A DNA stretch of 32,000 nt from contig OZ245049.1 of the NCBI GenBank assembly GCA_965224465.1, positions 2,040,001-2,072,000 of the forward strand, read 5' to 3'. Below, piece after piece: positions 6,001 through 32,000 of the stretch. The stretch is from Flavobacteriaceae bacterium (GTDB lineage: Bacteria; Bacteroidota; Bacteroidia; Flavobacteriales; Flavobacteriaceae). The notes under the pieces were generated by a model that worked only from the letters and a program-made list of their open reading frames with translations, was not told the origin of the DNA and did no database searches. Position numbers and translations under genes: made by a program. Each line of letters starts with the position of its first letter. Position 1 is the stretch's first letter.

Positions 6001-9000
6001 AGTGTAATATCACTTGACATATCTGCAACATCGGTGTAAATCTCGAAGGTATAATCAGCTCCTCCATCACAGGCAATTGGGCCTGTACTTAAGACTGGTT
6101 TTTTACATTCTGGACAGTCTGTTGGGGCAGTAATCGTGTGAACACTGTCTGCACATCCTGCATAACTAACTGTGATTTTTACATCTGTTCCGTTTGGTAT
6201 TCCTGTGATACTTGTCGTTCCAATAGTTGCTCCTGCAATCGCTGCATCTGCTGCGTCTGTAATTGCAAGTGTTGCTCCTGGGATTGTTTTATAACTAATA
6301 GTATAGGTATCCGTTCCGTCAGTTGCACAACTAGTACCTCCTATTGAAACAAGTGGATTTTCACATGGATCTGAACAATCTGCTGGACTGGTCACTTCCA
6401 TGGTCACCACACAATCAGTTCCGTTCTTCGCCTCGATGCTCATTGGTGTTCCAATAACTCCTGTGGCTGTTCCGTCTGCATTGTCTGTTCCGCCTGTTAC
6501 CGTTATGGTAGCTCCTGTACTTTCGCCGTAGCTTACCGTATAACTTGTGGCGTTCATACCATCACAAATTGCTTGCCCTACCACTAACTGTGGTAGTTTA
6601 CAATCTGTTGGACAGGTTGCCAAGCCTTTTACTTCTAGGGTTGTGGTACAATTATTTCCGTTTTTAGCGGTGATTGTAACATCGGTTCCTAAAGGAGCTG
6701 TTACAATATTCCCTGTTAATGTTCCTCCGACTACTGTAATGTTTGTAGGCATATCAGCAACATCTGTATAAATCTCGAAGGTATAATCAGCTGTTCCATC
6801 ACAGGCGATTGGGCCTGTACTCAATGTTGGTCTTTTACATTCAGGACAGTCTGTTGGGGCAGTAATCGTGTGAACACTGTCTGCACATCCTGCATAACTA
6901 ACTGTGATTTTTACATCCGTTCCGTTTGGTATCCCTGAGATACTTGTCGTTCCAACAGTTGCTCCTGCAATCGCTGCATCTGCGGCGTCTGTAATTACAA
7001 GTGTTGCGCCTGGGATTGTTTTATAACTAATAGTGTAAGTATCCGTTCCGTCAGTTGCACAACTAGTACCTCCTATTGAAACAAGTGGATTTTCACATGG
7101 ATCTAAACAATCTGCTGGACTGGTCACTTCCATGGTCACCACACAATCAGTTCCGTTCTTCGCCTCGATGCTCATTGGTGTTCCAATAACTCCTGTGGCT
7201 GTTCCGTCTGCATTGTCTGTTCCGCCTGTTACCGTTATGGTAGCTCCTGTACTTTCGCCGTAGCTTACCGTATAACTTGTGGCGTTCATACCATCACAAA
7301 TTGCTTGCCCTACCACTAACTGTGGTAGTTTACAATCTGTTGGACAGGTTGCCAAGCCTTTTACTTCTAGGGTTGTGGTACAATTATTTCCGTTTTTAGC
7401 GGTGATTGTAACATCGGTTCCTAAAGGAGCTGTTACAATATTCCCTGCTAATGATGCTCCTATCGAAAGTGTAATATCACTTGACATATCAGCAACATCG
7501 GTGTAAATCTCGAAGGTATAATCAGCTCCTCCATCACAGGCAATTGGGCCTGTACTTAAGACTGGTTTTTTACATTCTGGACAGTCTGTTGGGGCAGTAA
7601 TCGTGTGAACACTGTCTGCACATCCTGCATAACTAACTGTGATTTTTACATCCGTTCCGTTTGGTATTCCTGTGATACTTGTCGTTCCAATAGTTGCTCC
7701 TGCAATCGCTGCATCTGCGGCGTCTGTAATTACAAGTGTTGCACCTGGGATTGTTTTATAACTAATAGTATAGGTATCCGTTCCGTCAGTTGCACAACTA
7801 GTACCTCCTATTGAAACAAGTGGATTTTTACATGGATCTAAACAATCTGCTGGACTGGTTACTTCCATGGTCACCACACAATCAGTTCCGTTCTTCGCCT
7901 CGATGCTCATTGGTGTTCCAATAACTCCTGTGGCTGTTCCGTCTGCGTTGTCTGTTCCACCTGTTACCGTTATGGTTACTCCTGTACTTTCACCGTAGCT
8001 TACCGTATAACTTGTGGCGTTCATACCATCACAAATTGCTTGCCCTAGCACTAACTGTGGTAGTTTACAATCTGTTGGGCAGGTTACCAAGCCTTTTACT
8101 TCTAGGGTTGTGGTACAGTTAGCTCCGTTTTTAGCGATAATTATTACATCGGTTCCTAAAGGAGCTGATACTGTAGTTCCATTCAATGATGCTCCTGTCG
8201 AAAGTGTAATATCACTTGACATATCTGCAACATCTGTATAAATCTCGAAGGTATAATCAGCTGTTCCATCACAGGCAATTGGGCCTGTACTTAAGACTGG
8301 TTTTTTACATTCTGGACAGTCTGTTGGGGCAGTAATCGTGTGAACACTGTCTGCACATCCTGCATAACTAACTGTGATTTTTACATCTGTTCCGTTTGGT
8401 ATCCCTGAGATACTTGTCGTTCCAATAGTTGCTCCTGCAATTGCTGCATCTGCTGCGTCTGTAATTACAAGTGTTGCGCCTGGGATTGTTTTATAACTAA
8501 TAGTATAGGTATCCGTTCCGTCAGTTGCACAACTAGTACCTCCTATTGAAACAAGTGGATTTTCACATGGATCTAAACAATCTGCTGGACTGGTTACTTC
8601 CATGGTCACCACACAATCAGTTCCGTTCTTCGCCTCGATGCTCATTGGTGTTCCAATAACTCCTGTGGCTGTTCCGTCTGCATTGTCTGTTCCGCCTGTT
8701 ACCGTTATGGTAGCTCCTGTACTTTCGCCGTAGCTTACCGTATAACTTGTGGCGTTCATACCATCACAAATTGCTTGCCCTACCACTAACTGTGGTAGTT
8801 TACAATCTGTTGGGCAGGTTACCAAGCCTTTTACTTCTAGGGTTGTGGTACAGTTAGCTCCGTTTTTAGCGATAATTATTACATCGGTTCCTAAAGGAGC
8901 TGATACTGTAGTTCCATTCAATGATGCTCCTGTCGAAAGTGTAATATCACTTGACATATCTGCAACATCTGTATAAATCTCGAAGGTATAATCAGCTGTT

Positions 9001-12000
9001 CCATCACAGGCAATTGGACCTGTACTCAATGTTGGTTTTTTACATTCAGGACAGTCTGTTGGGGCAGTAATCGTGTGAACACTGTCTGCACATCCTGCAT
9101 AACTAACTGTGATTTTTACATCTGTTCCGTTTGGTATCCCTGAGATACTTGTCGTTCCAATAGTTACTCCTGAAAGCGCTGCTCCTGCTGCGTCTGTAAT
9201 TACAAGTGTTGCTCCTGGGATTATTTTATAACTAATAGTATAGCTAGCTGCTCCGTTACTTGCACAACTAGTACCTCCTATTGAAACAAGTGGATTTTCA
9301 CATGGATCTAAACAATCTGCTGGACTGGTCACTTCCATGGTCACCACACAATCAGTTCCGTTCTTCGCCTCGATGCTCATTGGTGTTCCAATAACTCCTG
9401 TGGCTGTTCCGTCTGCGTTGTCTGTTCCGCCTGTTACCGTTATGGTTGCTCCAGTACTTTCGCCGTAGCTTACCGTATAACTTGTGGCGTTTATACCATC
9501 ACAAATTGCTTGCCCTACCACTAACTGTGGTAGTTTACAATCTGTTGGACAGCTTGCCAAGCCTTTTACTTCTAGGGTTGTGGTACAGCTAGCTCCGTTT
9601 TTAGCAGTAATTATAACATCGGTTCCTAATAGCGCTGTTACTGTAGTTCCTACTAATGATGCTCCTGTCGAAAGTGTAATATCACTTGACATATCTGCAA
9701 CATCGGTGTAAATCTCGAAGGTATAATCAGCTCCTCCATCACAGGCAATTGGGCCTGTACTCAATGTTGGTCTTTTACATTCAGGACAGTCTGTTGAGGC
9801 AGTAATCATGTGAACACTGTCTGCACATCCTGCATAACTAACTGTGATTTTTACATCCGTTCCGTTTGGTATTCCAGTGATACTTGTCGTTCCAATAGTT
9901 GCTCCTGCAATCGCTGCATCTGCGGCGTCTGTAATTACAAGTGTTGCGCCTGGTATTGTTTTATAACTAATAGTATAGGTATCCGTTCCGTCAGTTGCAC
10001 AACTAGTACCTCCTATTGAAACAAGTGGATTTTCACATGGATCTAAACAATCTACTGGACTGGTCACTTCCATGGTCACCACACAATCAGTTCCGTTCTT
10101 CGCCTCGATGCTCATTGGTGTTCCAATAACTCCTGTGGCTGTTCCGTCTGCATTGTCTGTTCCTCCTGTTACTGTTATGGTTGCTCCTGTACTTTCGCCG
10201 TAGCTTACCGTATAACTTGTGGCGTTCATACCATCACAAATTGCTTGCCCTACCACTAACTGTGGTAGTTTACAATCTGTTGGACAGGTTGCCAAGCCTT
10301 TTACTTCTAGGGTTGTGGTACAATTATTTCCGTTTTTAGCGGTAATTATAACATCGGTTCCTAAAGGAGCTGTTACTGTAGTTCCATTCAATGATGCTCC
10401 TGTCGAAAGTGTAATATCACTTGACATATCTGCAACATCGGTGTAAATCTCGAAGGTATAATCAGCTGTTCCATCACAGGCGATTGGACCTGTACTTAAG
10501 ACTGGTTTTATACATTCAGGACAGTCTGTTGGGGCAGTAATCGTGTGAACACTGTCTGCACATCCTGCATAACTAACTGTGATTTTTACATCTGTTTTAT
10601 TTTCTATCCCTGTGATACTATTCGTTCCAATAGTTACTCCTGAAAGCGCTGCTCCTGCTGCGTCTGTAATTACAAGTGTTGCTCCTGGGATTGTTTTATA
10701 ACTAATAGTATAGCTAGCTGCTCCGTTACTTGCACAACTAGTACCTCCTATTGAAATAAGTGGATTTTCACATGGATCTAAACAATCTACTGGACTGGTC
10801 ACTGCCATGGTCACCACACAATCAGTTCCGTTCTTCGCCTCGATGCTCATTGGTGTTCCAATAACTCCTGTGGCTGTTCCGTCTGCGTTGTCTGTTCCTC
10901 CTGTTACCGTTATGGTTGCTCCTGTACTTTCGCCGTAGCTTACCGTATAACTTGTGGCGTTCATACCATCACAAATTGCTTGCCCTACCACTAACTGTGG
11001 TAGTTTACAATCTGTTGGACAGCTTGCCAAGCCTTTTACTTCTAGGGTTGTGGTACAGCTAGCTCCGTTTTTAGCGGTAATTATAACATCGGTTCCTAAA
11101 GGAGCTGTTACTGTAGTTCCATTCAATGATGCTCCTGTCGAAAGTGTAATATCACTTGACATATCTGCAACATCGGTGTAAATCTCGAAGGTATAATCAG
11201 CTGTTCCATCACAGGCGATTGGACCTGTACTTAAGACTGGTTTTATACATTCAGGACAGTCTGTTGGGGCAGTAATCGTGTGAACACTGTCTGCACATCC
11301 TGCATAACTAACTGTGATTTTTACATCTGTTTTATTTTCTATCCCTGTGATACTATTCGTTCCAATAGTTATTCCTGAAAGCGCTGCTCCTGCTGCGTCT
11401 GTAATTACAAGTGTTGCTCCTGTAATTATTTTATAACTAATAGTATAGCTAGCTGCTCCGTTACTTGCACAACTAGTACCTCCTATTGAAATAAGTGGAT
11501 TTTCACATGGATCTAAACAATCTACTGGACTGGTCACTGCCATGGTCACCACACAATCAGTTCCGTTCTTCGCCTCGATGCTCATTGGTGTTCCTATAAC
11601 TCCTGTGGCTGTTCCGTCTGCATTGTCTGTTCCTCCTGTTACTGTAATGGTTGCTCCTGTACTTTCGCCGTAGCTTACCGTATAACTTGTGGCGTTCATA
11701 CCATCACAAATTGCTTGCCCTACCACTAACTGTGGCAGTTTACAATCTGTTGGACAGGTTGCCAAGCCTTTTACTTCTAGGGTTGTGGTACAATTATTTC
11801 CGTTTTTAGCGGTAATTATAACATCGGTTCCTAAAACAGCTGTTACAATATTCCCTGTTAATGTTCCTCCGACTACTGTAATGTTTGTAGGCATATCTGA
11901 AACATCGGTGTAAATCTCGAAGGTATAATCAGCTGTTCCATCACAGGCGATTGGACCTGTACTCAATGTTGGTCTTTTACATTCTGGACAGTCTGTTGGG

Positions 12001-15000
12001 GCAGTAATCGTGTGAACACTGTCTGCACATCCTGCATAACTAACTGTGATTTTTACATCTGTTTTATTTTCTATCCCTGTGATACTTGTCGTTCCAATAG
12101 TTACTCCTGAAAGCGCTGCTCCTGCTGCGTCTGTAATTACAAGTGTTGCTCCTGGGATTATTTTATAACTAATAGTATAGCTAGCTGCTCCGTTACTTGC
12201 ACAACTAGTACCTCCTATTGAAATAAGTGCATTTTCACATGGATCTAAACAATCTACTGGACTGGTCACTGCCATGGTCACCACACAATCAGTTCCGTTC
12301 TTCGCCTCGATGCTCATTGGTGTTCCTATAACTCCTGTGGCTGTTCCGTCTGCATTGTCTGTTCCTCCTGTTACTGTAATGGTTGCTCCTGTACTTTCGC
12401 CGTAGCTTACCGTATAACTTGTGGCGTTCATACCATCACAAATTGCTTGCCCTACCACTAACTGTGGCAGTTTACAATCTGTTGGACAGGTTGCCAAGCC
12501 TTTTACTTCTAGGGTTGTGGTACAATTATTTCCGTTTTTAGCGGTAATTATAACATCGGTTCCTAAAACAGCTGTTACAATATTCCCTGCTAATGTTCCT
12601 CCGACTACTGTAATGTTTGTAGGCATATCTGCAACATCTGTGTAAATCTCGAAGGTATAATTCGCTGTTCCATCACAGGCAATTGGTCCTGTACTTAAGA
12701 CTGGTTTTATACATTCTGGACAGTCTGTTGGAGCAGTAATCGTGTGAACACTGTCTGCACATCCTGCATAACTAACTGTGATTTTTACATCTGTTTTATT
12801 TTCTATTCCTGTGATACTTGTCGTTCCAATAGTTACTCCTGAAAGCGCTGCTCCTGCTGCGTCTGTAATTACAAGTGTTGCTCCTGGGATTATTTTATAA
12901 CTAATAGTATAGCTAGCCGCTCCGTTACTTGCACAACTAGTACCCCCTATTGAAATAAGTGGATTTTCACATGGATCTAAACAATCTACTGGACTGGTCA
13001 CTGCCATGGTCACCACACAATCAGTTCCGTTCTTCGCCTCGATGCTCATTGGTGTTCCAATAACTCCTGTGGCTGTTCCGTCTGCGTTGTCTGTTCCTCC
13101 TGTTACCGTTATGGTTGCTCCTGTACTTTCGCCGTAGCTTACCGTATAACTTGTGGCGTTCATACCATCACAAATTGCTTGCCCTACCACTAACTGTGGT
13201 AGTTTACAATCTGTTGGACAGCTTGCCAAGCCTTTTACTTCTAGGGTTGTGGTACAGCTAGCTCCGTTTTTAGCAGTAATTATAACATCGGTTCCTAATA
13301 GCGCTGTTACTGTAGTTCCTACTAATGATGCTCCTGTCGAAAGTGTAATATCATTTGACATATCTGCAACATCGGTGTAAATCTCGAAGGTATAATTCGC
13401 TGTTCCATCACAGGCAATTGGGCCTGTACTCAATGTTGGTCTTTTACATTCAGGACAGTCTGTTGGGGCAGTAATCGTGTGAACACTGTCTGCACATCCT
13501 GCATAACTAACTGTGATTTTTACATCTGTTCCGTTTGGTATTCCTGTGATACTTGTCGTTCCAATAGTTGCTTCTGCAATCGCTGCATCTGCTGCATCTG
13601 TAATTACAAGTGTTGCTCCTGGGATTATTTTATAACTAATAGTATAGCTAGCTGCTCCGCTACTTGCACAACTAGTACCTCCTATTGAAACAAGTGGATT
13701 TTCACATGGATCTAAACAATCTACTGGACTGGTCACTTCCATGGTCACCACACAATCAGTTCCGTTCTTCGCCTCGATGCTCATTGGTGTTCCAATAACT
13801 CCTGTGGCTGTTCCGTCTGCGTTGTCTGTTCCTCCTGTTACCGTTATAGTAGCTCCTGTACTTTCGCCGTAGCTTACCGTATAACTTGTGGCGTTCATAC
13901 CATCACAAATTGCTTGCCCTACCACTAACTGTGGTAGTTTACAATCTGTTGGACAGCTTGCCAAGCCTTTTACTTCTAGGGTTGTGGTACAGCTAGCTCC
14001 GTTTTTAGCGGTAATTATAACATCGGTTCCTAAAGGAGCTGTTACTGTAGTTCCATTCAATGATGCTCCTGTCGAAAGTGTAATATCACTTGACATATCT
14101 GCAACATCGGTGTAAATCTCGAAGGTATAATCAGCTGTTCCATCACAGGCGATTGGACCTGTACTTAAGACTGGTTTTATACATTCAGGACAGTCTGTTG
14201 GGGCAGTAATCGTGTGAACACTGTCTGCACATCCTGCATAACTAACTGTGATTTTTACATCTGTTTTATTTTCTATCCCTGTGATACTATTCGTTCCAAT
14301 AGTTACTCCTGAAAGCGCTGCTCCTGCTGCGTCTGTAATTACAAGTGTTGCTCCTGGGATTGTTTTATAACTAATAGTATAGCTAGCTGCTCCGTTACTT
14401 GCACAACTAGTACCTCCTATTGAAATAAGTGGATTTTCACATGGATCTAAACAATCTACTGGACTGGTCACTTCCATGGTCACCACACAATCAGTTCCGT
14501 TCTTCGCCTCGATGCTCATTGGTGTTCCAATAACTCCTGTGGCCGTTCCGTCTGCGTTGTCTGTTCCCCCTGTTACCGTTATGGTTGCCCCTGTACTTTC
14601 GCCGTAGCTTACCGTATAACTTGTGGCATTCATACCATCACAAATTGCTTGCCCTACCACTAACTGTGGCAGTTTACAATCTGTTGGACAACTTGCCAAG
14701 CCTTTTACTTCTAGGGTTGTGGTACAGCTAGCTCCGTTTTTAGCGGTAATTATAACATCGGTTCCTAAAGGAGCTGTTACTGTAGTTCCTACTAATGATG
14801 CTCCTGTCGAAAGTGTAATATCATTTGACATATCTGCAACATCGGTGTAAATCTCGAAGGTATAATCAGCTGTTCCATCACAGGCGATTGGGCCTGTACT
14901 TAAGACTGGTTTTTTACATTCTGGACAGTCTGTTGGGGCAGTAATCGTGTGAACACTGTCTGCACATCCTGCATAACTAACTGTGATTTTTACATCTGTT

Positions 15001-18000
15001 CCGTTTGGTATCCCTGAGATACTTGTCGTTCCAATAGTTGCTCCTGCAATTGCTGCATCTGCTGCGTCTGTAATTACAAGTGTTGCGCCTGGGATTGTTT
15101 TATAACTAATAGTATAAGTATCCGTTCCGTCAGTTGCACAACTAGTACCTCCTATTGAAACAAGTGGATTTTCACATGGATCTAAACAATCTGCTGGACT
15201 GGTCACTGCCATGGTCACCACACAATCAGTTCCGTTCTTCGCCTCGATGCTCATTGGTGTTCCAATAACTCCTGTGGCTGTTCCGTCTGCGTTGTCTGTT
15301 CCTCCTGTTACCGTTATGGTTGCTCCTGTACTTTCGCCGTAGCTTACCGTATAACTTGTGGCGTTCATACCATCACAAATTGCTTGCCCTACTACTAACT
15401 GTGGTAGTTTACAATCTGTTGGACAGGTTGCCAAGCCTTTTACTTCTAGGGTTGTGGTACAGCTAGCTCCGTTTTTAGCAGTAATTATAACATCGGTTCC
15501 TAATAGCGCTGTTACTGTAGTTCCTACTAATGATGCTCCTGTCGAAAGTGTAATATCATTTGACATATCTGCAACATCGGTGTAAATCTCGAAGGTATAA
15601 TTCGCTGTTCCATCACAGGCGATTGGGCCTGTACTTAAGACTGGTTTTATACATTCAGGACAGTCTGTTGGGGCAGTAATCGTGTGAACACTGTCTGCAC
15701 ATCCTGCATAACTAACTGTGATTTTTACATCTGTTTTATTTTCTATTCCTGTGATACTTGTCGTTCCAATAGTTGCTCCTGCAATTGCTGCATCTGCTGC
15801 GTCTGTAATTACAAGTGTTGCACCTGGGATTGTTTTATAACTAATAGTATAGGTATCCGTTCCGTCAGTTGCACAACTAGTACCTCCTATTGAAACAAGT
15901 GGATTTTCACATGGATCTAAACAATCTGCTGGACTGGTCACTTCCATGGTCACCACACAATCAGTTCCGTTCTTCGCCTCGATGCTCATTGGTGTTCCAA
16001 TAACTCCTGTGGCTGTTCCGTCTGCGTTGTCTGTTCCGCCTGTTACCGTTATGGTTGCTCCAGTACTTTCGCCGTAGCTTACCGTATAACTTGTGGCGTT
16101 TATACCATCACAAATTGCTTGCCCTACCACCAACTGTGGTAGTTTACAATCTGTTGGACAGCTTGCCAAGCCTTTTACCTCTAGGGTTGTGGTACAATTA
16201 TCTCCGTTTTTAGCGGTGATTGTAACATCGGTTCCTAAAGGAGCTGTTACAATATTCCCTGCTAATGATGCTCCTATCGAAAGTGTAATATCACTTGACA
16301 TATCAGCAACATCGGTGTAAATCTCGAAGGTATAATTCGCTGTTCCATCACAGGCGATTGGGCCTGTACTTAAGACTGGTTTTATACATTCAGGACAGTC
16401 TGTTGGGGCAGTAATCGTGTGAACACTGTCTGCACATCCTGCATAACTAACTGTGATTTTTACATCCGTTCCGTTTGGTATCCCTGAGATACTTGTCGTT
16501 CCAACAGTTGCTCCTGCAATCGCTGCATCTGCGGCGTCTGTAATTACAAGTGTTGCGCCTGGGATTGTTTTATAACTAATAGTGTAAGTATCCGTTCCGT
16601 TACTTGCACAACTAGTACCTCCTATTGAAACAAGTGGATTTTCACATGGATCTAAACAATCTGCTGGACTGGTCACTTCCATGGTCACCACACAATCAGT
16701 TCCGTTCTTCGCCTCGATGCTCATTGGTGTTCCAATAACTCCTGTGGCTGTTCCGTCTGCGTTGTCTGTTCCGCCTGTTACCGTTATGGTAGCTCCTGTA
16801 CTTTCACCGTAGCTTACCGTATAACTTGTGCCGTTTATACCATCACAAATTGCTTGCCCTACCACTAACTGTGGTAGTTTACAATCTGTTGGACAGCTTG
16901 CCAAGCCTTTTACTTCTAGGGTTGTGGTACAGTTAGCTCCGTTTTTAGCGGTGATTGTAACATCGGTTCCTAAAGGAGCTGTTACAATATTCCCTGTTAA
17001 TGATGCTCCTATCGAAAGTGTAATATCACTTGACATATCTGCAACATCTGTATAAATCTCGAAGGTATAATTCGCTGTTCCATCACAGGCGATTGGACCT
17101 GTACTTAAGACTGGTTTTTTACATTCAGGACAGTCTGTTGGGGCAGTAATCGTGTGAACACTGTCTGCACATCCTGCATAACTAACTGTGATTTTTACAT
17201 CCGTTCCGTTTGGTATTCCTGTGATACTTGTCGTTCCAATAGTTGCTCCTGCAATCGCTGCATCTGCGGCGTCTGTAATTACAAGTGTTGCACCTGGGAT
17301 TGTTTTATAACTAATAGTATAGGTATCCGTTCCGTCAGTTGCACAACTAGTACCTCCTATTGAAACAAGTGGATTTTCACATGGATCTAAACAATCTGCT
17401 GGACTGGTTACTTCCATGGTCACCACACAATCAGTTCCGTTCTTCGCCTCGATGCTCATTGGTGTTCCAATAACTCCTGTGGCTGTTCCGTCTGCGTTGT
17501 CTGTTCCGCCTGTTACCGTTATGGTAGCTCCAGTACTTTCACCGTAGCTTACCGTATAACTTGTGGCGTTTATACCATCACAAATTGCTTGCCCTACCAC
17601 TAACTGTGGTAGTTTACAATCTGTTGGACAGGTTGCCAAGCCTTTTACTTCTAGGGTTGTGGTACAATTATTTCCGTTTTTAGCGGTGATTGTAACATCG
17701 GTTCCTAAAGGAGCTGTTACAATATTCCCTGTTAATGTTCCTCCGACTACTGTAATGTTTGTAGGCATATCAGCAACATCTGTATAAATCTCGAAGGTAT
17801 AATCAGCTGTTCCATCACAGGCAATTGGACCTGTACTCAATGTTGGTTTTTTACATTCTGGACAGTCTGTTGGGGCAGTAATCATGTGAACACTGTCTGC
17901 ACATCCTGCATAACTAACTGTGATTTTTACATCCGTTCCGTTTGGTATTCCAGTGATACTTGTCGTTCCATTAGTTGCTCCTGCAATCGCTGCATCTGCG

Positions 18001-21000
18001 GCGTCTGTAATTACAAGTGTTGCGCCTGGTATTGTTTTATAACTAATAGTATAGGTATCCGTTCCGTCAGTTGCACAACTAGTACCTCCTATTGAAACAA
18101 GTGGATTTTCACATGGATCTAAACAATCTGCTGGACTGGTCACTTCCATGGTCACCACACAATCAGTTCCGTTCTTCGCCTCGATGCTCATTGGTGTTCC
18201 AATAACTCCTGTGGCTGTTCCGTCTGCATTGTCTGTTCCGCCTGTTACCGTTATGGTAGCTCCTGTACTTTCGCCGTAGCTTACCGTATAACTTGTGGCG
18301 TTCATACCATCACAAATTGCTTGCCCTACCACTAACTGTGGTAGTTTACAATCTGTTGGACAGCTTGCCAAGCCTTTTACTTCTAGGGTTGTGGTACAGT
18401 TAGCTCCGTTTTTAGCGGTAATTATAACATCGGTTCCTAAAGGAGCTGTTACAATATTCCCTGTTAATGATGCTCCTATCGAAAGTGTAATATCACTTGA
18501 CATATCTGCAACATCGGTGTAAATCTCGAAGGTATAATCAGCTCCTCCATCACAGGCAATTGGGCCTGTACTTAAGACTGGTTTTTTACATTCTGGACAG
18601 TCTGTTGGGGCAGTAATCGTGTGAACACTGTCTGCACATCCTGCATAACTAACTGTGATTTTTACATCTGTTCCGTTTGGTATTCCTGTGATACTTGTCG
18701 TTCCAATAGTTGCTCCTGCAATCGCTGCATCTGCTGCGTCTGTAATTGCAAGTGTTGCTCCTGGGATTGTTTTATAACTAATAGTATAGGTATCCGTTCC
18801 GTCAGTTGCACAACTAGTACCTCCTATTGAAACAAGTGGATTTTCACATGGATCTGAACAATCTGCTGGACTGGTCACTTCCATGGTCACCACACAATCA
18901 GTTCCGTTCTTCGCCTCGATGCTCATTGGTGTTCCAATAACTCCTGTGGCTGTTCCGTCTGCATTGTCTGTTCCGCCTGTTACCGTTATGGTAGCTCCTG
19001 TACTTTCGCCGTAGCTTACCGTATAACTTGTGGCGTTTATACCATCACAAATTGCTTGCCCTACCACTAACTGTGGTAGTTTACAATCTGTTGGACAGGT
19101 TGCCAAGCCTTTTACTTCTAGGGTTGTGGTACAATTATTTCCGTTTTTAGCGGTGATTGTAACATCGGTTCCTAAAGGAGCTGTTACAATATTCCCTGTT
19201 AATGTTCCTCCGACTACTGTAATGTTTGTAGGCATATCAGCAACATCTGTATAAATCTCGAAGGTATAATCAGCTGTTCCATCACAGGCGATTGGGCCTG
19301 TACTCAATGTTGGTCTTTTACATTCAGGACAGTCTGTTGGGGCAGTAATCGTGTGAACACTGTCTGCACATCCTGCATAACTAACTGTGATTTTTACATC
19401 CGTTCCGTTTGGTATCCCTGAGATACTTGTCGTTCCAACAGTTGCTCCTGCAATCGCTGCATCTGCGGCGTCTGTAATTACAAGTGTTGCACCTGGGATT
19501 GTTTTATAACTAATAGTATAGGTATCCGTTCCGTCAGTTGCACAACTAGTACCTCCTATTGAAACAAGTGGATTTTTACATGGATCTAAACAATCTGCTG
19601 GACTGGTTACTTCCATGGTCACCACACAATCAGTTCCGTTCTTCGCCTCGATGCTCATTGGTGTTCCAATAACTCCTGTGGCTGTTCCGTCTGCGTTGTC
19701 TGTTCCACCTGTTACCGTTATGGTTACTCCTGTACTTTCACCGTAGCTTACCGTATAACTTGTGGCGTTCATACCATCACAAATTGCTTGCCCTAGCACT
19801 AACTGTGGTAGTTTACAATCTGTTGGGCAGGTTACCAAGCCTTTTACTTCTAGGGTTGTGGTACAGTTAGCTCCGTTTTTAGCGATAATTATTACATCGG
19901 TTCCTAAAGGAGCTGATACTGTAGTTCCATTCAATGATGCTCCTGTCGAAAGTGTAATATCACTTGACATATCTGCAACATCTGTATAAATCTCGAAGGT
20001 ATAATCAGCTGTTCCATCACAGGCAATTGGGCCTGTACTTAAGACTGGTTTTTTACATTCTGGACAGTCTGTTGGGGCAGTAATCGTGTGAACACTGTCT
20101 GCACATCCTGCATAACTAACTGTGATTTTTACATCTGTTCCGTTTGGTATCCCTGAGATACTTGTCGTTCCAATAGTTGCTCCTGCAATTGCTGCATCTG
20201 CTGCGTCTGTAATTACAAGTGTTGCGCCTGGGATTGTTTTATAACTAATAGTATAGGTATCCGTTCCGTCAGTTGCACAACTAGTACCTCCTATTGAAAC
20301 AAGTGGATTTTCACATGGATCTAAACAATCTGCTGGACTGGTTACTTCCATGGTCACCACACAATCAGTTCCGTTCTTCGCCTCGATGCTCATTGGTGTT
20401 CCAATAACTCCTGTGGCTGTTCCGTCTGCATTGTCTGTTCCGCCTGTTACCGTTATGGTAGCTCCTGTACTTTCGCCGTAGCTTACCGTATAACTTGTGG
20501 CGTTCATACCATCACAAATTGCTTGCCCTACCACTAACTGTGGTAGTTTACAATCTGTTGGGCAGGTTACCAAGCCTTTTACTTCTAGGGTTGTGGTACA
20601 GTTAGCTCCGTTTTTAGCGATAATTATTACATCGGTTCCTAAAGGAGCTGATACTGTAGTTCCATTCAATGATGCTCCTGTCGAAAGTGTAATATCACTT
20701 GACATATCTGCAACATCTGTATAAATCTCGAAGGTATAATCAGCTGTTCCATCACAGGCAATTGGACCTGTACTCAATGTTGGTTTTTTACATTCAGGAC
20801 AGTCTGTTGGGGCAGTAATCGTGTGAACACTGTCTGCACATCCTGCATAACTAACTGTGATTTTTACATCTGTTCCGTTTGGTATCCCTGAGATACTTGT
20901 CGTTCCAATAGTTACTCCTGAAAGCGCTGCTCCTGCTGCGTCTGTAATTACAAGTGTTGCTCCTGGGATTATTTTATAACTAATAGTATAGCTAGCTGCT

Positions 21001-24000
21001 CCGTTACTTGCACAACTAGTACCTCCTATTGAAACAAGTGGATTTTCACATGGATCTAAACAATCTGCTGGACTGGTCACTTCCATGGTCACCACACAAT
21101 CAGTTCCGTTCTTCGCCTCGATGCTCATTGGTGTTCCAATAACTCCTGTGGCTGTTCCGTCTGCGTTGTCTGTTCCGCCTGTTACCGTTATGGTTGCTCC
21201 AGTACTTTCGCCGTAGCTTACCGTATAACTTGTGGCGTTTATACCATCACAAATTGCTTGCCCTACCACTAACTGTGGTAGTTTACAATCTGTTGGACAG
21301 CTTGCCAAGCCTTTTACTTCTAGGGTTGTGGTACAGCTAGCTCCGTTTTTAGCAGTAATTATAACATCGGTTCCTAATAGCGCTGTTACTGTAGTTCCTA
21401 CTAATGATGCTCCTGTCGAAAGTGTAATATCACTTGACATATCTGCAACATCGGTGTAAATCTCGAAGGTATAATCAGCTCCTCCATCACAGGCAATTGG
21501 GCCTGTACTCAATGTTGGTCTTTTACATTCAGGACAGTCTGTTGAGGCAGTAATCATGTGAACACTGTCTGCACATCCTGCATAACTAACTGTGATTTTT
21601 ACATCCGTTCCGTTTGGTATTCCAGTGATACTTGTCGTTCCAATAGTTGCTCCTGCAATCGCTGCATCTGCGGCGTCTGTAATTACAAGTGTTGCGCCTG
21701 GTATTGTTTTATAACTAATAGTATAGGTATCCGTTCCGTCAGTTGCACAACTAGTACCTCCTATTGAAACAAGTGGATTTTCACATGGATCTAAACAATC
21801 TACTGGACTGGTCACTTCCATGGTCACCACACAATCAGTTCCGTTCTTCGCCTCGATGCTCATTGGTGTTCCAATAACTCCTGTGGCTGTTCCGTCTGCA
21901 TTGTCTGTTCCTCCTGTTACTGTTATGGTTGCTCCTGTACTTTCACCGTAGCTTACCGTATAACTTGTGGCGTTCATACCATCACAAATTGCTTGCCCTA
22001 GCACTAACTGTGGTAGTTTACAATCTGTTGGGCAGGTTACCAAGCCTTTTACTTCTAGGGTTGTGGTACAGTTAGCTCCGTTTTTAGCGATAATTATTAC
22101 ATCGGTTCCTAAAGGAGCTGATACTGTAGTTCCATTCAATGATGCTCCTGTCGAAAGTGTAATATCACTTGACATATCTGCAACATCTGTATAAATCTCG
22201 AAGGTATAATCAGCTGTTCCATCACAGGCAATTGGACCTGTACTCAATGTTGGTTTTTTACATTCTGGACAGTCTGTTGGGGCAGTAATCATGTGAACAC
22301 TGTCTGCACATCCTGCATAACTAACTGTGATTTTTACATCCGTTCCGTTTGGTATTCCAGTGATACTTGTCGTTCCAATAGTTGCTCCTGCAATCGCTGC
22401 ATCTGCGGCGTCTGTAATTACAAGTGTTGCGCCTGGGATTGTTTTATAACTAATAGTATAGGTATCCGTTCCGTCAGTTGCACAACTAGTACCTCCTATT
22501 GAAACAAGTGGATTTTCACATGGATCTAAACAATCTGCTGGACTGGTCACTTCCATGGTCACCACACAATCAGTTCCGTTCTTCGCCTCGATGCTCATTG
22601 GTGTTCCAATAACTCCTGTGGCTGTTCCGTCTGCGTTGTCTGTTCCGCCTGTTACCGTTATGGTTGCTCCAGTACTTTCGCCGTAGCTTACCGTATAACT
22701 TGTGGCGTTTATACCATCACAAATTGCTTGCCCTACCACTAACTGTGGTAGTTTACAATCTGTTGGACAGGTTGCCAAGCCTTTTACCTCTAGGGTTGTG
22801 GTACAGTTAGCTCCGTTTTTAGCGGTGATTGTAACATCGGTTCCTAAAGGAGCTGATACTGTAGTTCCATTCAATGATGCTCCTGTCGAAAGTGTAATAT
22901 CACTTGACATATCTGCAACATCGGTGTAAATCTCGAAGGTATAATTCGCTGTTCCATCACAGGCGATTGGGCCTGTACTCAATGTTGGTCTTTTACATTC
23001 AGGACAGTCTGTTGGGGCAGTAATCGTGTGAACACTGTCTGCACATCCTGCATAACTAACTGTGATTTTTACATCTGTTCCGTTTGGTATCCCTGAGATA
23101 CTTGTCGTTCCAATAGTTGCTCCTGCAATTGCTGCATCTGCTGCGTCTGTAATTACAAGTGTTGCGCCTGGTATTGTTTTATAACTAATAGTATAGGTAT
23201 CCGTTCCGTCACTTGCACAACTAGTACCTCCTATTGAAACAAGTGGATTTTCACATGGATCTAAACAATCTGCTGGACTGGTCACTTCCATGGTCACCAC
23301 ACAATCAGTTCCGTTCTTCGCCTCGATGCTCATTGCTGTTCCAATAACTCCTGTGGCTGTTCCGTCTGCATTGTCTGTTCCTCCTGTTACCGTTATGGTT
23401 GCTCCTGTACTTTCGCCGTAGCTTACCGTATAACTTGTGGCGTTCATACCATCACAAATTGCTTGCCCTACCACTAACTGTGGTAGTTTACAATCTGTTG
23501 GACAACTTGCCAAGCCTTTTACTTCTAGGGTTGTGGTACAGCTAGCTCCGTTTTTAGCGGTAATTATAACATCGGTTCCTAAAGGAGCTGTTACTGTAGT
23601 TCCTACTAATGATGCTCCTGTCGAAAGTGTAATATCATTTGACATATCTGCAACATCGGTGTAAATCTCGAAGGTATAATCAGCTGTTCCATCACAGGCG
23701 ATTGGGCCTGTACTTAAGACTGGTTTTTTACATTCTGGACAGTCTGTTGGGGCAGTAATCGTGTGAACACTGTCTGCACATCCTGCATAACTAACTGTGA
23801 TTTTTACATCTGTTCCGTTTGGTATCCCTGAGATACTTGTCGTTCCAATAGTTGCTCCTGCAATTGCTGCATCTGCTGCGTCTGTAATTACAAGTGTTGC
23901 GCCTGGGATTGTTTTATAACTAATAGTATAAGTATCCGTTCCGTCAGTTGCACAACTAGTACCTCCTATTGAAACAAGTGGATTTTCACATGGATCTAAA

Positions 24001-27000
24001 CAATCTGCTGGACTGGTTACTTCCATGGTCACCACACAATCAGTTCCGTTCTTCGCCTCGATGCTCATTGGTGTTCCAATAACTCCTGTGGCTGTTCCGT
24101 CTGCATTGTCTGTTCCTCCTGTTACCGTTATGGTAGCTCCTGTACTTTCACCGTAGCTTACCGTATAACTTGTGGCGTTCATACCTTCACAAATTGCTTG
24201 CCCTACTACTAACTGTGGTAGTTTACAATCTGTTGGACAGGTTGCCAAGCCTTTTACTTCTAGGGTTGTGGTACATCCACTTTTATTAACAACTGTTATA
24301 ACAACATCCGTATTTAACGCAACGGTTACAACGTCATTTAATAAGGTACCATTAGAAATAGTATATTTAGAATCATCTGTAATATCACTATTACTAAATA
24401 AATTAAAGGTATAATTAGCTGTTCCATCACAAGAAACAGGTCCTGTAGTTAAAGTAGGTTTTTGAATATCAATAAGTACCTTTTCTGTATACATTACAGA
24501 ACAGCCATTCAAATCTGACACTGTTAATTTATACGTATCAGGCTTCGTCACTTTCATTGTCAATATATTACTGTCAGAATTATCATCTGTAATAACATTC
24601 CCTGAACTATCTGTCCATACATATATATAATCAGTAGCTGCTGAAACTTTACCTCCTGATGCTGCCGTAGCAGTTAATAAACCAGGCGTATTACAGTAAA
24701 TAGTTGTTGCACTTGCAATAGCGCTTAATAGAGCATCCGCAGGCTCTGTTACTATTTTAGTGGACGTAAACGAACAATTATTAACATCCGTCACCACCAC
24801 TTTATACGTACCTGCTGTCAAGCCAGATTGATCTTCATTTGATACACTTAACCCAGTACCATCAGTTGTTGACCAAACAAATGTATAAGGAGTTTTCCCT
24901 CCAGAAACTGTTAAATCAATTGCTCCATTTGCTTCTCCATTACAAGAAATTGGGTTTTGAGCTAAGGTAACATCTATTGCTGCTGGCTGAGTTAATGTAA
25001 CACTTGTTGTTGCCTCACAATTGGTATCTGTATCTTTTACTACTATCGTATAGGTTCCAATAGCCAAGCCTATTTGATCTTTATCTGTTGCTGTAAGTCC
25101 AGTCCCATCGGTACTTGTCCAAGCATACGAATAATTACCAGATCCATTTAAAACAACTAGCGAAATAGTCCCTGATGAATCACCATTACACGCAATATCC
25201 GTAATTACATTTGGTGAGATATCTAAAGAACAACCTTCTGCATTTACCGTAGTTATATTGGTTGCCGTACAGTTATTAGCATCTGTAATTGTTACTGTAT
25301 AATCCCCTGCGGTAAGTCCGGTAGCTGTAGCTGTTGTCTGTACTGGAGCAGAATTCCAAGAATAGGTATAAGGACCAGTACCCCCAGAAGGAATAGCAGT
25401 TACTTCTCCTTCAGTACCTAATACTGTCACTTGATGTGACAAGGTACTTGCCGCTACTGTTAATGATTTTTTAGGCTCTGAAATCCGCACACTTTGTTCA
25501 GAAAAACAACCTTTATTACTTATTGCCTTTAACGTATATACTCCACTTGGAACATCACTTAAGGTTGCTGAAGATCCTATTATTGTATTGGATGAATTAT
25601 ACCATTCATAGATTACAGGAGTATCTGCTGTGGTAACTACAGCTATTACACTCCCTGTATTTTCTCCTTTACATGTTACAGCTGTCGGTGTCATTGAATT
25701 AATTACAACCGCCGTATTACAGTTGTACGGATGAACTATTACCTGCTGTACTATTATACAACCTGCAGCATCGGTCACTGTTACTTGATAGGTCCCTGGA
25801 ACTCTTCCTGAAACACTTTCTGAACTCGCTATATTAGTAGCCGGAGGCGTAAGACCATCCTCAGAAACAATTAAATCCCACACATAACTATACGCCGTAA
25901 CACCATCTGTTACTGTGGCAGTCACGACACCATCATTTGCATCGATTCCAGTTTCATTTGAAGCTGTCGTACTTACATTTAATGTTGAATTAAATTCCTC
26001 TACCATTACTGTAACAGGAATTATCACAGTACACGTTCCAACATTTTTGGACGTTACGGTAATCGCACTATAAGCACCTATGCTTAAATCAGGAATCAAA
26101 ATAATCCCTGATGCATCTGTTGTTATATCTTGTACTAAAGCTGTAGCACCATCTTTTGAATAGCTTACACTGTATGTAGTATTCACTTTTAAACCACCGT
26201 TACTGATAACAATAGTTCCGTTATTTGCAGGCGCACACGTTGTAGGTGTTGTACTTATCGCTTTTAATTCCGCTGTTAATTCACACGGATTTACTTCAAG
26301 CAAGGCTGTTGTTACAGAAACACACCCTGTTGCTGGGGCAGATACAACTAACTTATACAAATACTTATCTATCGAATACTGAATATCTGTCAACGTAATA
26401 CTGTTGGATATTTCACCTGCAATATCTGTATATGTAGCACCATTATCCGTACTTACTTGCCATTGGTATACTAAATCGGAAGTGGCATCTACACTTGTAT
26501 TAGGATTGGTTGTAAAGTCCGTTACTTTGGTTGCTGACGCAGTCCCGGTAAATGTATGATTGTCTGAAATATCTACTGTTGCATTACTTATAGGATTGTC
26601 TATAGAGATTGTAATATTGGACAATGCTGCGGGGCTATATGTACTAACACCCTCTTTAAATTTGGTTAAATCTGTAGTCGCAGCGGAAGTATCATCTCCA
26701 TTTTCCAATAATGACGAATAGCCATTTTCTCCGTAGTCTGTAACCGTACTCCCTCCACTTTTTACTTGTCCATTTGTAAATGTCGTGTCTGTAGCAGAAG
26801 CCCCATCTGGTAAGGTCCCTTCTTGTAAATGTTCTTCAAGAATACCCGCTTCCATACTGTCTGGACAGCCATCATCATCCGAGTCTAGGTCTAAATAATT
26901 TGGTATTCCATCACCATCAGTATCCGCACAAGCAGCTGGCATTGCTGGACTTATTATTATTGCATAATTTGAATTCACGTTTGTACTCGTAGAATACACG

Positions 27001-30000
27001 CTCAATGATGTTGCTGGCGTACTTGATTTCCAAACAAAACCTGAACCATTATTGATTGTTGCGCTCGTACTATTTTTAACGGAATAATCATTTCCGGAAA
27101 CAACATCATTTAATCCCGTATTAGACAAGGTAGAGATAAATTTATAAGCAACATTGTCCGTTGCAATAAACCCATCTGATATGCCAGCACCTAAAGCTCC
27201 TCCATGTTTAACTTTCAAGTACACAGGTACCGTCCCTGAGAAAGTGTATTCCACATTTCCAACAGTACCTCCAGAAGCCGCAGAACCATTAGGTATTGTA
27301 CTCGTACCAATTACAGAAGCAATAACAGACCCTAAAGGCAATCCCCACCTATGACTGATATCTTTCACAGCATCCTGATTTCCGCCTAGCTCCCCTGTAT
27401 TAAAACTAAAATCATCTACATTAGATAACACATAACTTGCCGATTCTGGACATTCCACAGTGTCCAATATCCCATCATTATCATCATCGATATCTACCAA
27501 ATCAGGAACTCCATCTCCATCTGTATCAATACAAAGATTAGAATTACTATCTAATGCATAGGTATCATACGTAGAGGTATAACTCGTAGTTGCACTTCCT
27601 GTATCATCACTTTCTACATAAGAAGAAAGTCCGTTTGATCCATAATCATTTCCTGCGGATGCTATTTGTCCATTTGTAAAAGTCGTATCAGCTGCCGAAG
27701 TACCATCAGGTAAAGTTGCATCTTGCATGATGGCTCCTGTAGCTTTGTCTACTCCTGCTTCTATTGCATCTGGACAGCCATCACCGTCTGAATCTAGGTC
27801 TAAATTATTTGGTATGCCGTCGTTATCGGTATCTCTATAAGGCACTGTTAAAGCAGGAGTACAATTATAAGCGGTAGTAGAAGCGTTATACTTTGATCCT
27901 GAAAGATACATATCATCCAACAAAGCAGTAGTAGAGGTCGCATGCTTATTGTGAAAATAAAACCTAATACTATATACTTTATTTGGTTTTAAAGGGTAAA
28001 AAGTTGTATTAAACGGAGCATTTACACTGCTAGATAAAACTTGTTGATCCGTCAGACAAGTATATGAATTCCAATTATCGTCAGATATTCGAATCGATAT
28101 TTTAGGGTTATTGTATCCAATAAAAGAATACAACGCATAGTCAAAAGTAAAATTCGCAGTTTTAAAATTACTCTCAAAATAATGATTTTCTTTAAAAGGA
28201 TTTAAATGCGCATCGCCAACTGTTACAGGATTTAAATACGTGACAGTAGATGAAAGATCATCCGTAAATCCTGAACCTAAAGCAGCATCGTACTGTTCTT
28301 GTATTATTGTAGTAGGACCCGTAAAATAAAAAGTGTATTTTTTCTTAATATCGTTAAGATTTCCTCCGACAGTAATCCATGCCATTACATTGTCTCTTCC
28401 AGAAGCATCCGATGGTTTAAAAGAACAATTTGAACACCCCGATTCACCTAACTCAACCACATCCAATATTCCATCATTATCATCATCAATATCAATTAAA
28501 TCACCAATACCATCTCCGTCTGTATCTATACAAACATTAAGACCACTATCTAATGCATAATTCTCATACGTAGATGTATAACTCGTAGTTGCACTTTCTG
28601 TATCATCACTTTCTACATAAGAAGAAAGTCCGTTAGATCCATAATCATTTCCTGCGGATGCTATTTGTCCGTTTGTAAAAGTCGTATCAGCAGCCGAAGT
28701 ACCATCAGGTAAGGTTGCATCTTGCATGATGGCTCCTGTAGCTTTGTCTACACCTGCTTCTATAGCATCTGGACAACCATCACCATCTGAATCTAGGTCT
28801 AGGTGATTGGGAATCCCGTCGTTATCGGTATCTATTTCTGAGCATTCACCTTCTAACGAAACTAAATCAACCGCTGAAGAAGCATTAGCAAAAACTAATT
28901 CATGTATTTTTACACCTCCTGTCATAGTAGTATCCACATAATGTTTTTGCCCATCAGGATCATATCGATCTAAAATTGTATTGCCTTCAATATCTCTAGC
29001 AATAATACGAACTTGACCACTAGGAGCTGGGTCACTCCAAATAGCAAAAGAAGATGTTGTTTTCTTTGTCAATCCGTCCTTGGAAAAATAAGCAATACTT
29101 ACACCTGTACCATTCCAAATCATTTTATTATCTGTATCCCCTTGACTAGCCCAACTTCCATGGTTTATTACTCTAAAATAATTAGTGTTAGCAACAAAAG
29201 AACCATTTACATGTCGAATGCGTATACCTAAAGTAGATAAAAGAGTATTCATATCATGATTCCCAACTGAAAGGCCTTCGGTTAAATTAACATTAGAAGC
29301 TTTTTTACAAAAAGAGTCATCTACATCCAATATCCCATCATTATCATCATCAATATCTATTAAATCACCAATACCATCTCCGTCTGTATCTATACAAACA
29401 TTAAGACCACTATCTAATGCATAATTCTCATACGTAGACACATAAGATGTAGTCGCATTTATATCATCTTCTTTTCCAGTCTCACCCAAGCCATTCGCCA
29501 ATCCATTATTTCCATAAGGACCTTCTGCCAAGGCTTTTGGTTTATTAGTCGTGGTATTTGTAGTACCATCCCCATTTACAATATCACCCGCGAGTAATGT
29601 CCCTGACACTCCTGACTCTACGGCATCTGGACAGCCGTCACCATCAGAATCTAGGTCTAAATGATTTGGAATTCCATCGTTATCGGTATCTATATCACCA
29701 CAAAGTTCAGATTTCTGACTAATTTTAAAATCATCTATCGTAAATGAACCACGAGATATCGTTATTCTATATTTTTCTAGAGGCACCGTTCCTGAATACA
29801 CTATCGTACCATTATGACTATATGTCATATTACCATCTTTATCTATAGCTAAAATAAATTTTTTCCCAACAACCGATGGAGCATGCCAACCGCTAGCAAT
29901 AGCTCCATGTCTTACGTACATACCACTAGAGGCATTAAATTGAAATTTATATCCATTATCTATATAATTACTTGTATTCTCTGTACCTGACATCGGTAAA

Positions 30001-32000: not shown

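Follow-up and report, generated by a model that had tools for sequence, protein, structure and literature searches.

What purpose does a string of thrombospondin type 3 (TSP3)-like blocks, interrupted by cysteine-flanked domains, serve in a giant bacterial protein, and how are these domains held in it? The question is raised by a 32,000-nt stretch of a Flavobacteriaceae genome, hereafter called the window. In marine and soil Bacteroidota, gliding and attachment are driven by giant adhesins of the type IX system, SprB among them, and, to our knowledge, little has been established about their ligands and the parts that bind them. According to our analysis, the array is rather likely to be the part of one giant adhesin that binds ligands, with several heads clasped by disulfides on a backbone stiffened by calcium.

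The giant gene and its N-terminal array

Translation showed that a minus-strand open reading frame fills the whole window without a stop. The full gene runs from genome position 2074382 to 2033610 on the minus strand and encodes 13,591 aa, arranged from the N-terminus as a signal peptide, the head array, SprB repeats, a Cys-rich repeat stalk, a Cys-free TSP3 array and a CHU_C domain. The N-terminal Sec signal peptide, judged by eye, starts MKKTFLIRKASLIALLIFVLSIHG. Pfam identified CHU_C in the final 100 residues of the 13,591-aa protein (E 1.1e-23, 83.6 bits) and SprB repeats (PF13573) in 3 stretches (E 7.8e-18). Minus-strand positions 26682-32000 of the window translate into 1773 stop-free aa of the array, and positions 3..26681 hold the remaining ORF on the same strand, which contains the SprB repeats as well as the stalk, where Cys-rich modules of about 76-80 aa follow one another in a long array. 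Past the right window edge, the head array continues for 794 aa (2 blocks and the 2 domains Dm2 and Dm1), which brings the total to eight heads; most of block 2, block 1, both domains and the signal peptide lie there, at genome 2072001-2074382 on the minus strand.

The array that the first-pass annotation had located is present, and we can add its strand and gene context, namely the N-terminal part of one minus-strand gene. The distal placement of the heads, claimed at the same time, agrees with our results, as the array comes directly after the signal peptide, with CHU_C as the type IX secretion signal at the opposite C-terminus. Jointly with the multi-head reading, and with the same measured confidence, we regard the gene as encoding a SprB-like surface adhesin of a marine flavobacterium, exported via the type IX secretion system, of which the array would be the cell-distal region.

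Each block consists of an A motif with its GCPD (DxDxDGIPNxLDLDSD(G/D)DGCPD), a linker of 60-80 aa and then a Cys and the B motif (C(I/T)DxDGDxxxDxxDxDDDNDGxLD). The A motif is present in 6 copies (window aa 187, 475, 771, 1057, 1390 and 1693) and the B motif in 5 (window aa 285, 573, 869, 1157 and 1490). The six blocks, plus one implied at the edge, that had been counted previously were nearly right: the window contains 5 complete blocks (122-124 aa), a terminal half block with the A motif only and, at the edge, the last 3 residues (ILD) of the B-motif tail of block 2 (31992..32000; this and all feature positions below are on the minus strand). In block 3 (aa 981-1102; 31077..31442), whose model reaches a pLDDT of 59-85, about 76 aa of linker separate the GCPD-containing A motif from the Cys and B motif. 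Block 4 (aa 1269-1390; 30213..30578), which is covered by the D1 structure model, block 5 (aa 1565-1686; 29325..29690) and block 7 (aa 2184-2307; 27462..27833) were recognized by their motifs and block identity, and block 6 (aa 1851-1974; 28461..28832) carries a second linker subtype (DKATGAIMQDATLPDG...). The terminal half block (26682..26924) is made of an A motif (DTDGDGIPNYLDLDSDDDGCPD) and a linker, lacks the B motif and leads into the stalk.

Compared pairwise, the blocks are 61-80% identical, and neither the Asp ladders nor the two Cys vary between them. Pfam TSP_3 (PF02412) matched 8 stretches of the 1773-aa region (E 2.2e-8, 34.1 bits for a cut-off of 25); in the flanks of D2-family segments, a TSP_3 match was present in 21 of 30 and a TSP3_bac (PF18884) match in 4 of 30. 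Judging from these motifs, the spacer is predicted to form two double TSP3-type calcium-binding loops.

The six window domains (D0 to D5), of 164-209 aa, each lie between consecutive blocks. As the first-pass annotation had stated, a Cys stands at both ends of every one of them; we place it 4-9 residues past the B motif and 1-10 residues ahead of the next A motif. We propose that each head departs from the backbone after the B motif and rejoins it just before the next A motif. The eight heads would be mutually unrelated beta-sandwich modules of 164-209 aa (the fold being modelled for D1 and D2) hanging from a calcium-stiffened backbone, with their loop-bearing far faces presumably turned outward.

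Folds of the heads and their candidate ligands

D1 (aa 1103-1268; 30579..31076; bracket C1109/C1266) is predicted to be a CBM32 / F5/8-type-C (discoidin) beta-sandwich. Its AF2 model, obtained from an alignment in which 47 of 50 rows are true D1 and 3 are misplaced, has a core pLDDT mostly >90. The Foldseek comparison with lectin and CBM folds that had been suggested at the outset was run for D1 and D2 and found CBM32 and ConA-like matches. For D1, many CBM32 entries were retrieved at E 4e-7 to 1e-5 (target TM up to 0.73), and VIA aligned model residues 132-273 with 127 of the 137 residues of 2v72 (Z 13.1, rmsd 2.8 Å). The likeness extends to the whole CBM32 / F5/8 type C module, but identity is 8-20%. 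The D1 family profile matched CBM32 2w1q in the PDB (E 3.7e-4), and Pfam F5_8_type_C (PF00754) gave no match even at E up to 10; since only the family profile reaches CBM32, D1 appears to have the CBM32 fold but to lie outside the Pfam family.

D2 (aa 1391-1564; 29691..30212; bracket C1396/C1561), modelled by AF2 with a core pLDDT of about 90-97, resembles a concanavalin-A-like jelly-roll of the SPRY/CBM66/GH16/L-type-lectin kind. Foldseek returned GH16, SPRY and Emp46/47 structures (E 4e-8), VIA aligned model residues 38-200 with 7qs5 (Z 15.0) and with CBM66 4b1m (Z 13.8), and the ESM Atlas rows were ConA-like/SPRY clusters by name. None of the 30 D2-family members matched SPRY, Laminin_G, GH16, CBM66, TSP_C or any Pfam fold family at E up to 0.1, and the family profile found no match among PDB sequences at E up to 10. 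VIA also aligned D2 with the thrombospondin-1 C-terminal domain 2rhp_A (Z 12.8). In the thrombospondin signature domain, an L-type-lectin-like C-terminal domain follows calcium loops of the DxDxDG type whose Cys are conserved, and the array likewise has such loops (Pfam TSP_3) next to the ConA-like beta sandwich of D2. Unlike in thrombospondin, however, linkers of 60-80 aa and entire inserted domains stand between the bacterial loops, the repeat recurs many times in combination with a variety of domains, and D2 has no sequence similarity to TSP_C.

Going by their sequences, D0, D3, D4 and D5 appear to be members of rare families. Pfam searches with each single domain and its homologues gave nothing above threshold, and PDB sequence searches with these four gave no meaningful match. 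D0 (aa 798-980, 183 aa; 31443..31991) has 4 Cys, the bracket C803/C977 and the inner C826/C927, and 66-68% identical homologues in Tenacibaculum xiamenense (L025) and P0008. Its best ESM Atlas feature scores were 0.77-0.79 with PA14 clusters among the matches, a weak lead on a scale where 0.9 is needed for more than a lead. D5 (aa 2308-2486; 26925..27461; bracket C2311/C2485) scored 0.76-0.78 against clusters without names, likewise below that mark; it has a paralogue of 68% identity at genome 4046053-4046580, and P0009 contains a copy of 66% identity. D3 (aa 1687-1850; 28833..29324; bracket C1692/C1847), without any Pfam or PDB match, is represented by no more than 6 clusters in a set of 1.84 billion proteins and is present in 1 of 200 other genomes of the same family. 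D4 (aa 1975-2183, 209 aa; 27834..28460), with 4 Cys (C1983, C1986, C2109 and C2174), had no homologue among proteins up to 2000 aa and one (85%) in the 1980-6300 aa range. Pfam CBM_4_9 matched D4 below threshold (E 0.017), as it did the same region of the 85%-identical homologue P0009 (E 0.035).

The initial description of the heads as binding modules stands in part, with a fold resemblance for two of the six window domains, CBM32-like D1 and ConA-like/CBM66/SPRY-like D2. These models suggest that ligands, mostly glycans, probably differ from head to head, which would allow one filament multi-specific adhesion. SPRY-type ConA folds have protein ligands as often as sugars. Another explanation, which we consider improbable, is that the heads do not bind ligands and act as structural bulk, in self-association (filament bundling or cell aggregation) or as enzymes, D2 being for example a GH16-like glycanase. 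The binding role does rest on fold resemblance, the fold is assigned for only two of the six window heads, and ConA-like folds cover GH16 enzymes as well as protein-binding SPRY domains. However, a reading of the D2 sequence shows no GH16 ExDxxE catalytic motif, nor is this motif among the invariant columns of the D2 family (W, Y, S, Q, P, G and D), and D1 resembles non-catalytic CBM32 modules across its whole length. Furthermore, heads that are so diverse and turn over so much while their scaffold is conserved are expected of surfaces that meet ligands, not of structural filler.

Probable pairing of the bracket cysteines

Thrombospondin type 3 repeats contain short-range disulfides, and in eukaryotic F5/8-type-C (discoidin) domains a disulfide joins the two extremities. 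If the Cys of the array bracketed the TSP3 loops locally, one disulfide would span the B motif, from the pre-B Cys to the domain-start Cys, and another the A motif, from the domain-end Cys to the GCPD Cys. This scheme was first suggested by Cys parity in the 13,591-aa protein: the 42 Cys of the array pair off perfectly under it, whereas a clasp between domain ends leaves an odd Cys in Dm2, which has five, and in the terminal half block, where the GCPD Cys has no pre-B partner. The spacing, about 30 and 24 residues, is also compatible with local pairing.

We then examined Cys covariation in 157 unique inter-motif domains from 78 related loci and the source genome, a census that takes in related sequences and gives non-independent counts. 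Start and end Cys were both present in 120 domains, both missing in 32 and discordant in 5, and in 41 of 50 BLAST-unrelated domain clusters most members have the bracket. As Cys accounts for only 0.24% of domain interiors (wider census), the bracket Cys are far beyond chance. Both are kept in 20 domains without a Cys before or in the B motif, in 7 without the A-motif Cys and in 4 with a Cys in neither flank; likewise, six members of the D2 family retain the domain-start Cys though their pre-B Cys is absent. The two block Cys (GCPD and pre-B) behave in the same manner, with both in 127 linkers and neither in 143, and one occurs alone only where the linker holds another Cys. These counts argue against local bracketing, which we now judge quite unlikely.

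The covariation in the 78 related loci pairs start with end and favours the clasp between domain ends that the first-pass annotation had put forward. The entry and exit of each module are probably held together by a disulfide that joins its first Cys to its last, and the block probably has a disulfide of its own, from the GCPD Cys to the pre-B Cys. In the D1 family, all four Cys are conserved together, so that this family cannot discriminate between the clasp and local pairing. In both models, the matched fold lies almost exactly between the bracket Cys (D1, model 132-276 between Cys 129 and 286; D2, model 38-200 between Cys 37 and 202). DSSP detected short bridges beside these Cys (residues 35-36 and 203-204 in D2, residues 130 and 282 in D1), a hint that the ends are adjacent in the modelled structures.

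Possible exchange of heads and comparison with known systems

The domains had been described as unrelated to one another, and we reached the same result. No pair among the eight domains gave a BLAST match below E 0.7, all hhalign probabilities over the eight families were ≤1.9% after removal of the three misplaced rows, and D1 and D2 fall into separate fold groups (Foldseek, VIA). An apparent D1-D2 homology (hhalign 85-93%, with reversed/shuffled controls ≤1.3%) came from one D2-like row, L037:746-1954, and vanished once the three misplaced rows left the D1 alignment A2. That all heads are highly diverged copies of one ancestral jelly-roll, co-duplicated with the blocks, is very unlikely: D1 and D2 are both jelly-roll-type beta sandwiches of similar size and all heads share the Cys bracket and the repeat position, but D1 matches CBM32 and D2 ConA/SPRY folds, and no profile-profile signal exists in any pair. 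Since the blocks are 61-80% identical and the heads have no detectable similarity, insertion or exchange of heads fits better than co-duplication.

The socket formed by B motif, Cys, domain, Cys and A motif was found in Tenacibaculum, Chryseobacterium, Zobellia, Polaribacter, Dyadobacter, Saprospiraceae and others. In the 78 loci sampled, it is occupied by at least 41 families without sequence relationship, and clustering on domain cores separated 193 Cys-started cores into 61 clusters. As far as sequence comparison can tell, dozens of unrelated domain families share the socket across Bacteroidota and the construction is widespread; with so many families in it, the socket behaves as a general cassette holder. 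Modules like D1, D2, D5 and Dm2 are also present in two other giant genes of the source genome, in a different order, and in P0009 D5' is placed ahead of D4'.

More tentatively, with chances that we put slightly short of even, the unit of double TSP3 loop, Cys, domain, Cys and double TSP3 loop may serve the giant adhesins of Bacteroidota in general as a plug-in socket, with heads swapped between giant genes, and an independently evolved type IX counterpart of the RTX split-domain. Such a socket would take any fold with its two ends together, and swaps could occur by recombination within the conserved block DNA. The calcium wire would be thrombospondin-like, with an origin independent of the RTX split-domain principle. 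If this is true, a lineage could re-tool the binding specificity of its filament with the stalk untouched.

In RTX adhesins, type I secreted giant proteins such as Aeromonas hydrophila AhLap, Marinomonas MpIBP and Vibrio FrhA (PMC12077191, PMC10865825), the distal tip has split domains, out of which bud ligand-binding domains whose termini lie next to each other (PMC12077191). The array protein is comparable to them as a giant fibrillar adhesin in which a long stalk is built of repeats and several distinct candidate binding modules (CBM, PA14 and others) are placed at the cell-distal end; its modules, too, would have adjacent N- and C-termini and project sideways from a calcium-dependent backbone. 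It differs in being a type IX protein with a C-terminal CHU_C and N-terminal heads, whereas RTX adhesins have an N-terminal anchor and C-terminal heads. Its holder would consist of paired TSP3 calcium loops and a disulfide instead of an Ig-like split domain, and it has eight heads against two or three. Pfam searches of the N-terminus, the array, about 2,200 aa of adjoining stalk and the C-terminus found no RTX-type nonapeptide family, the central stalk of about 7,400 aa being outside the scan. Given the type IX CTD and the lack of an RTX-type Pfam match in the scanned parts, the likeness to the RTX split-domain region is functional only. The design of RTX adhesins, in which heads bud from a stalk stiffened by calcium, may have an independent second instance in the array. 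It delimits eight candidate binding heads whose exact boundaries are given by the bracket Cys and each of which is small enough for single expression. With the socket in many genera, a simple motif rule could find ligand-binding modules, many of them unannotated, in hundreds of giant proteins.

With SprB and other gliding adhesins with a type-B CTD, the protein shares the signal peptide, SprB repeats, CHU_C and very large size, and a PorP/SprF gene lies in the surrounding gene cluster. It is distinguished from them by the N-terminal array of TSP3 spacers and pendant domains: our literature searches found no such description, no paper pairing TSP3 repeats with type IX adhesins and none showing the TSP3-spacer/head layout. 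A further difference from SprB is that the PorP/SprF gene follows a neighbouring giant gene and not the 13,591-aa gene, downstream of which we found an ABC transporter with no PorP/SprF gene immediately after. The nearest PorP/SprF gene (E 6e-86) lies upstream with a PorE-like gene, directly after the neighbouring giant gene, and an IS66 element separates both from the 13,591-aa gene.

Architecture of the giant secreted protein

All 32 kb of the window (genome 2040001-2072000) lie within one uninterrupted minus-strand open reading frame. The complete frame runs from genome position 2074382 to 2033610, encodes 13,591 aa and starts with a typical Sec signal peptide. The array of TSP3 blocks and pendant domains (window 26682-32000) therefore makes up the N-terminal portion of a very large secreted protein. 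Pfam detects TSP_3 in 8 stretches of the array (E 2e-8), SprB repeats directly after it and a CHU_C type IX secretion signal within the last 100 residues (E 1e-23). CHU_C-type cargo, such as SprB-type proteins, stays attached to the cell surface through its C-terminus, and the array would therefore form the distal end of the protein, as the first-pass annotation had proposed.

The observation of the array is real and the earlier reading is largely supported. The window has 6 copies of motif A, DxDxDGIPNxLDLDSD(G/D)DGCPD, and 5 of motif B, C(I/T)DxDGDxxxDxxDxDDDNDGxLD. The repetition of a block of about 125 aa was thus confirmed, while the proposed count of six plus one implied was corrected to five complete blocks (122-124 aa), a last block reduced to motif A and a block tail at the right edge. 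Blocks share 61-80% identity, with the Asp ladders and two Cys invariant. Between consecutive blocks sit D0-D5 (164-209 aa), each with, as previously described, bracketing cysteines: one 4-9 residues past motif B and one 1-10 residues ahead of the next motif A. Upstream of the window the pattern goes on for two further blocks and two further domains (Dm2 and Dm1), which brings the pendant domains of the protein to eight.

A second TSP3 array was observed near the C-terminus (protein aa 12105-13332, genome about 2034400-2038100). It consists of a 279-aa super-repeat, present 4 times, with inter-motif gaps of 10, 50, 45 and 86 aa. Its motifs lack Cys. As it has no pendant domains, it puts the shared calcium motif to another use, near the CHU_C signal.

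Covariation of the cysteine pairs

The block alignment led to 78 loci with the same block, from numerous Bacteroidota and a small number of other phyla. These loci and this genome were scanned for double TSP3 motifs, yielding 157 unique domains between motifs, each 110-230 aa long. The start and end Cys occurred together in 120 domains, were both missing in 32 and disagreed in 5, supporting the proposal that a Cys clasp joins the termini of each domain. To lessen the effect of relatedness we also counted clusters, and 41 of 50 BLAST clusters carry the bracket; the interior Cys frequency of the domains is 0.24%. In the linkers, the GCPD Cys of motif A and the Cys preceding motif B were both present in 127 cases and both absent in 143, a single one being found only where another Cys occurs in the linker.

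Both bracket Cys are kept in 20 domains without a Cys before or in motif B, in 7 without a Cys in motif A and in 4 without a Cys in either flank. Similarly, six members of the D2 family lack the pre-B Cys and keep the domain-start Cys. The domain pair and the linker pair thus covary independently of each other, as would be predicted for a clasp on each domain together with a staple within each block. Cysteines that bracketed the TSP3 loops, rather than clasping the domains, would not be expected to behave in this way.

At two sites the Cys counts do not close under the clasp model. Dm2 (protein aa 165-334, L009:1381-1890) has five Cys. In the terminal half block, the last motif A (window 26859-26924) has a GCPD Cys without a pre-B partner, and the next two Cys lie in the first stalk module.

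Relatedness and predicted folds of the pendant domains

No pairwise BLAST match between domains falls below E 0.7, and profile-profile comparison of all eight families gave probabilities of at most 1.9%. By both measures the domains are mutually unrelated, as first suggested, and they are probably not homologous copies of a single family. An apparent D1-D2 profile match (85-93%), which passed reversed and shuffled controls, was due to a D2-like row in the D1 alignment and was gone once this row was removed. Pfam gave no above-threshold match in any domain or its closest homologues; the sole recurring signal was a weak CBM_4_9 for D4 (E 0.017) and its 85%-identical homologue (E 0.035). The D0, D3, D4 and D5 families are rare: D3 has only 6 representative clusters in 1.84 billion proteins, D4 one close homologue, and D0 and D5 two homologues each.

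D1 and D2, the two families with enough homologues, were subjected to structure prediction and to the Foldseek check suggested in the first-pass annotation. The D1 model spans block 3, D1 and block 4 (alignment of 50 rows; mean pLDDT 81.5, pTM 0.78, core pLDDT mostly >90) and the D2 model spans D2 with its flanking motifs (30 rows; mean pLDDT 80.7, pTM 0.72, core about 90-97). D1 is predicted to have a CBM32 / F5/8-type-C (discoidin-like) fold: Foldseek matched this fold (E 4e-7), VIA aligned the model over all of 2v72 (Z 13.1, rmsd 2.8 Å), and the D1 family profile reached CBM32 sequences in the PDB (E 3.7e-4). The D2 model is a concanavalin-A-like jelly roll, with Foldseek matches to GH16, SPRY and Emp46/47 lectins (E 4e-8), VIA alignments to a B30.2/SPRY domain (Z 15.0) and CBM66 (Z 13.8), and ESM Atlas shape matches to clusters named ConA-like/SPRY. 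Because the GH16 ExDxxE motif is absent from D2, enzymatic activity of this domain is unlikely. The fold matched in each of the two models occupies the stretch between the two bracket Cys almost exactly. In eukaryotic discoidin domains the extremities are tied by a disulfide, which fits D1.

A further alignment of the D2 model is with the lectin-like domain at the C-terminus of human thrombospondin-1 (2rhp_A 948-1170, VIA Z 12.8), which likewise comes after type 3 repeats; sequence support for common descent of these two domains was looked for and none was found.

We classed the array as a distal, multi-head region of a giant adhesin. A backbone stiffened by calcium would be formed by TSP3 loops and stapled linkers, and beta-sandwich heads with clasped termini would bud from it, so that a single filament for gliding or attachment would have several binding specificities. 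Among known designs, the ligand-binding region of RTX adhesins comes closest, although the array protein differs in secretion system, polarity and holder. Literature searches found no description of TSP3 blocks alternating with pendant domains, only general remarks on the presence of TSP3 repeats in adhesion proteins of marine flavobacteria (PMC2668756).

Probable exchange of heads, gene neighbourhood and occurrence

Two further giant genes in this genome use the same TSP3-block scaffold, at 2079773-2103904 (minus strand) and from 4038901 (plus strand), with 17 double motifs each. Their heads are in different orders, many D1-like, plus D2-, D5- and Dm2-like. The second comprises ORFs 4038901-4050927 and 4050884-4059718 (both plus strand), the latter overlapping the end of the former by 44 nt; the pair may represent a single frameshifted gene or two separate ones. 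Clustering of 193 Cys-started domain cores gave 61 BLAST clusters, including 31 singletons, the largest being the D1-like family (61 members, 19 loci). In a MAG protein, the D5 homologue stands ahead of the D4 homologue. Since the blocks are conserved and the heads are not, it is more likely that heads were exchanged or inserted than that they diverged in place.

On the minus strand, genome 2074300-2080000 contains in order the neighbouring giant gene, PorP/SprF (E 6e-86), a PorE-like PD40-CarboxypepD_reg-OmpA protein, an IS66-family transposase (plus strand) and the start of this gene. Behind the gene for the 13,591-aa protein come an ABC transporter and an rRNA operon, and no SprF of its own.

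Several metagenomic D2-family proteins additionally contain PF00754/PF22633 (F5/8 type C) and PF26628 (DUF8202). The D2 model, flanks included, is also matched by an Atlas cluster made up of T9SS type-A proteins with DUF8202, so type-A cargo may bear these heads as well. One hypothetical protein of the D2 family, which has bacterial TSP3 motifs in its flanks, is attributed to Daphnia sinensis, probably through Bacteroidota contamination of the assembly. Window 26925-31991 is nearly all present in two runs of one sample, and 29% of its sampled words were found in a marine sediment metagenome, so a close relative occurs in marine sediment.
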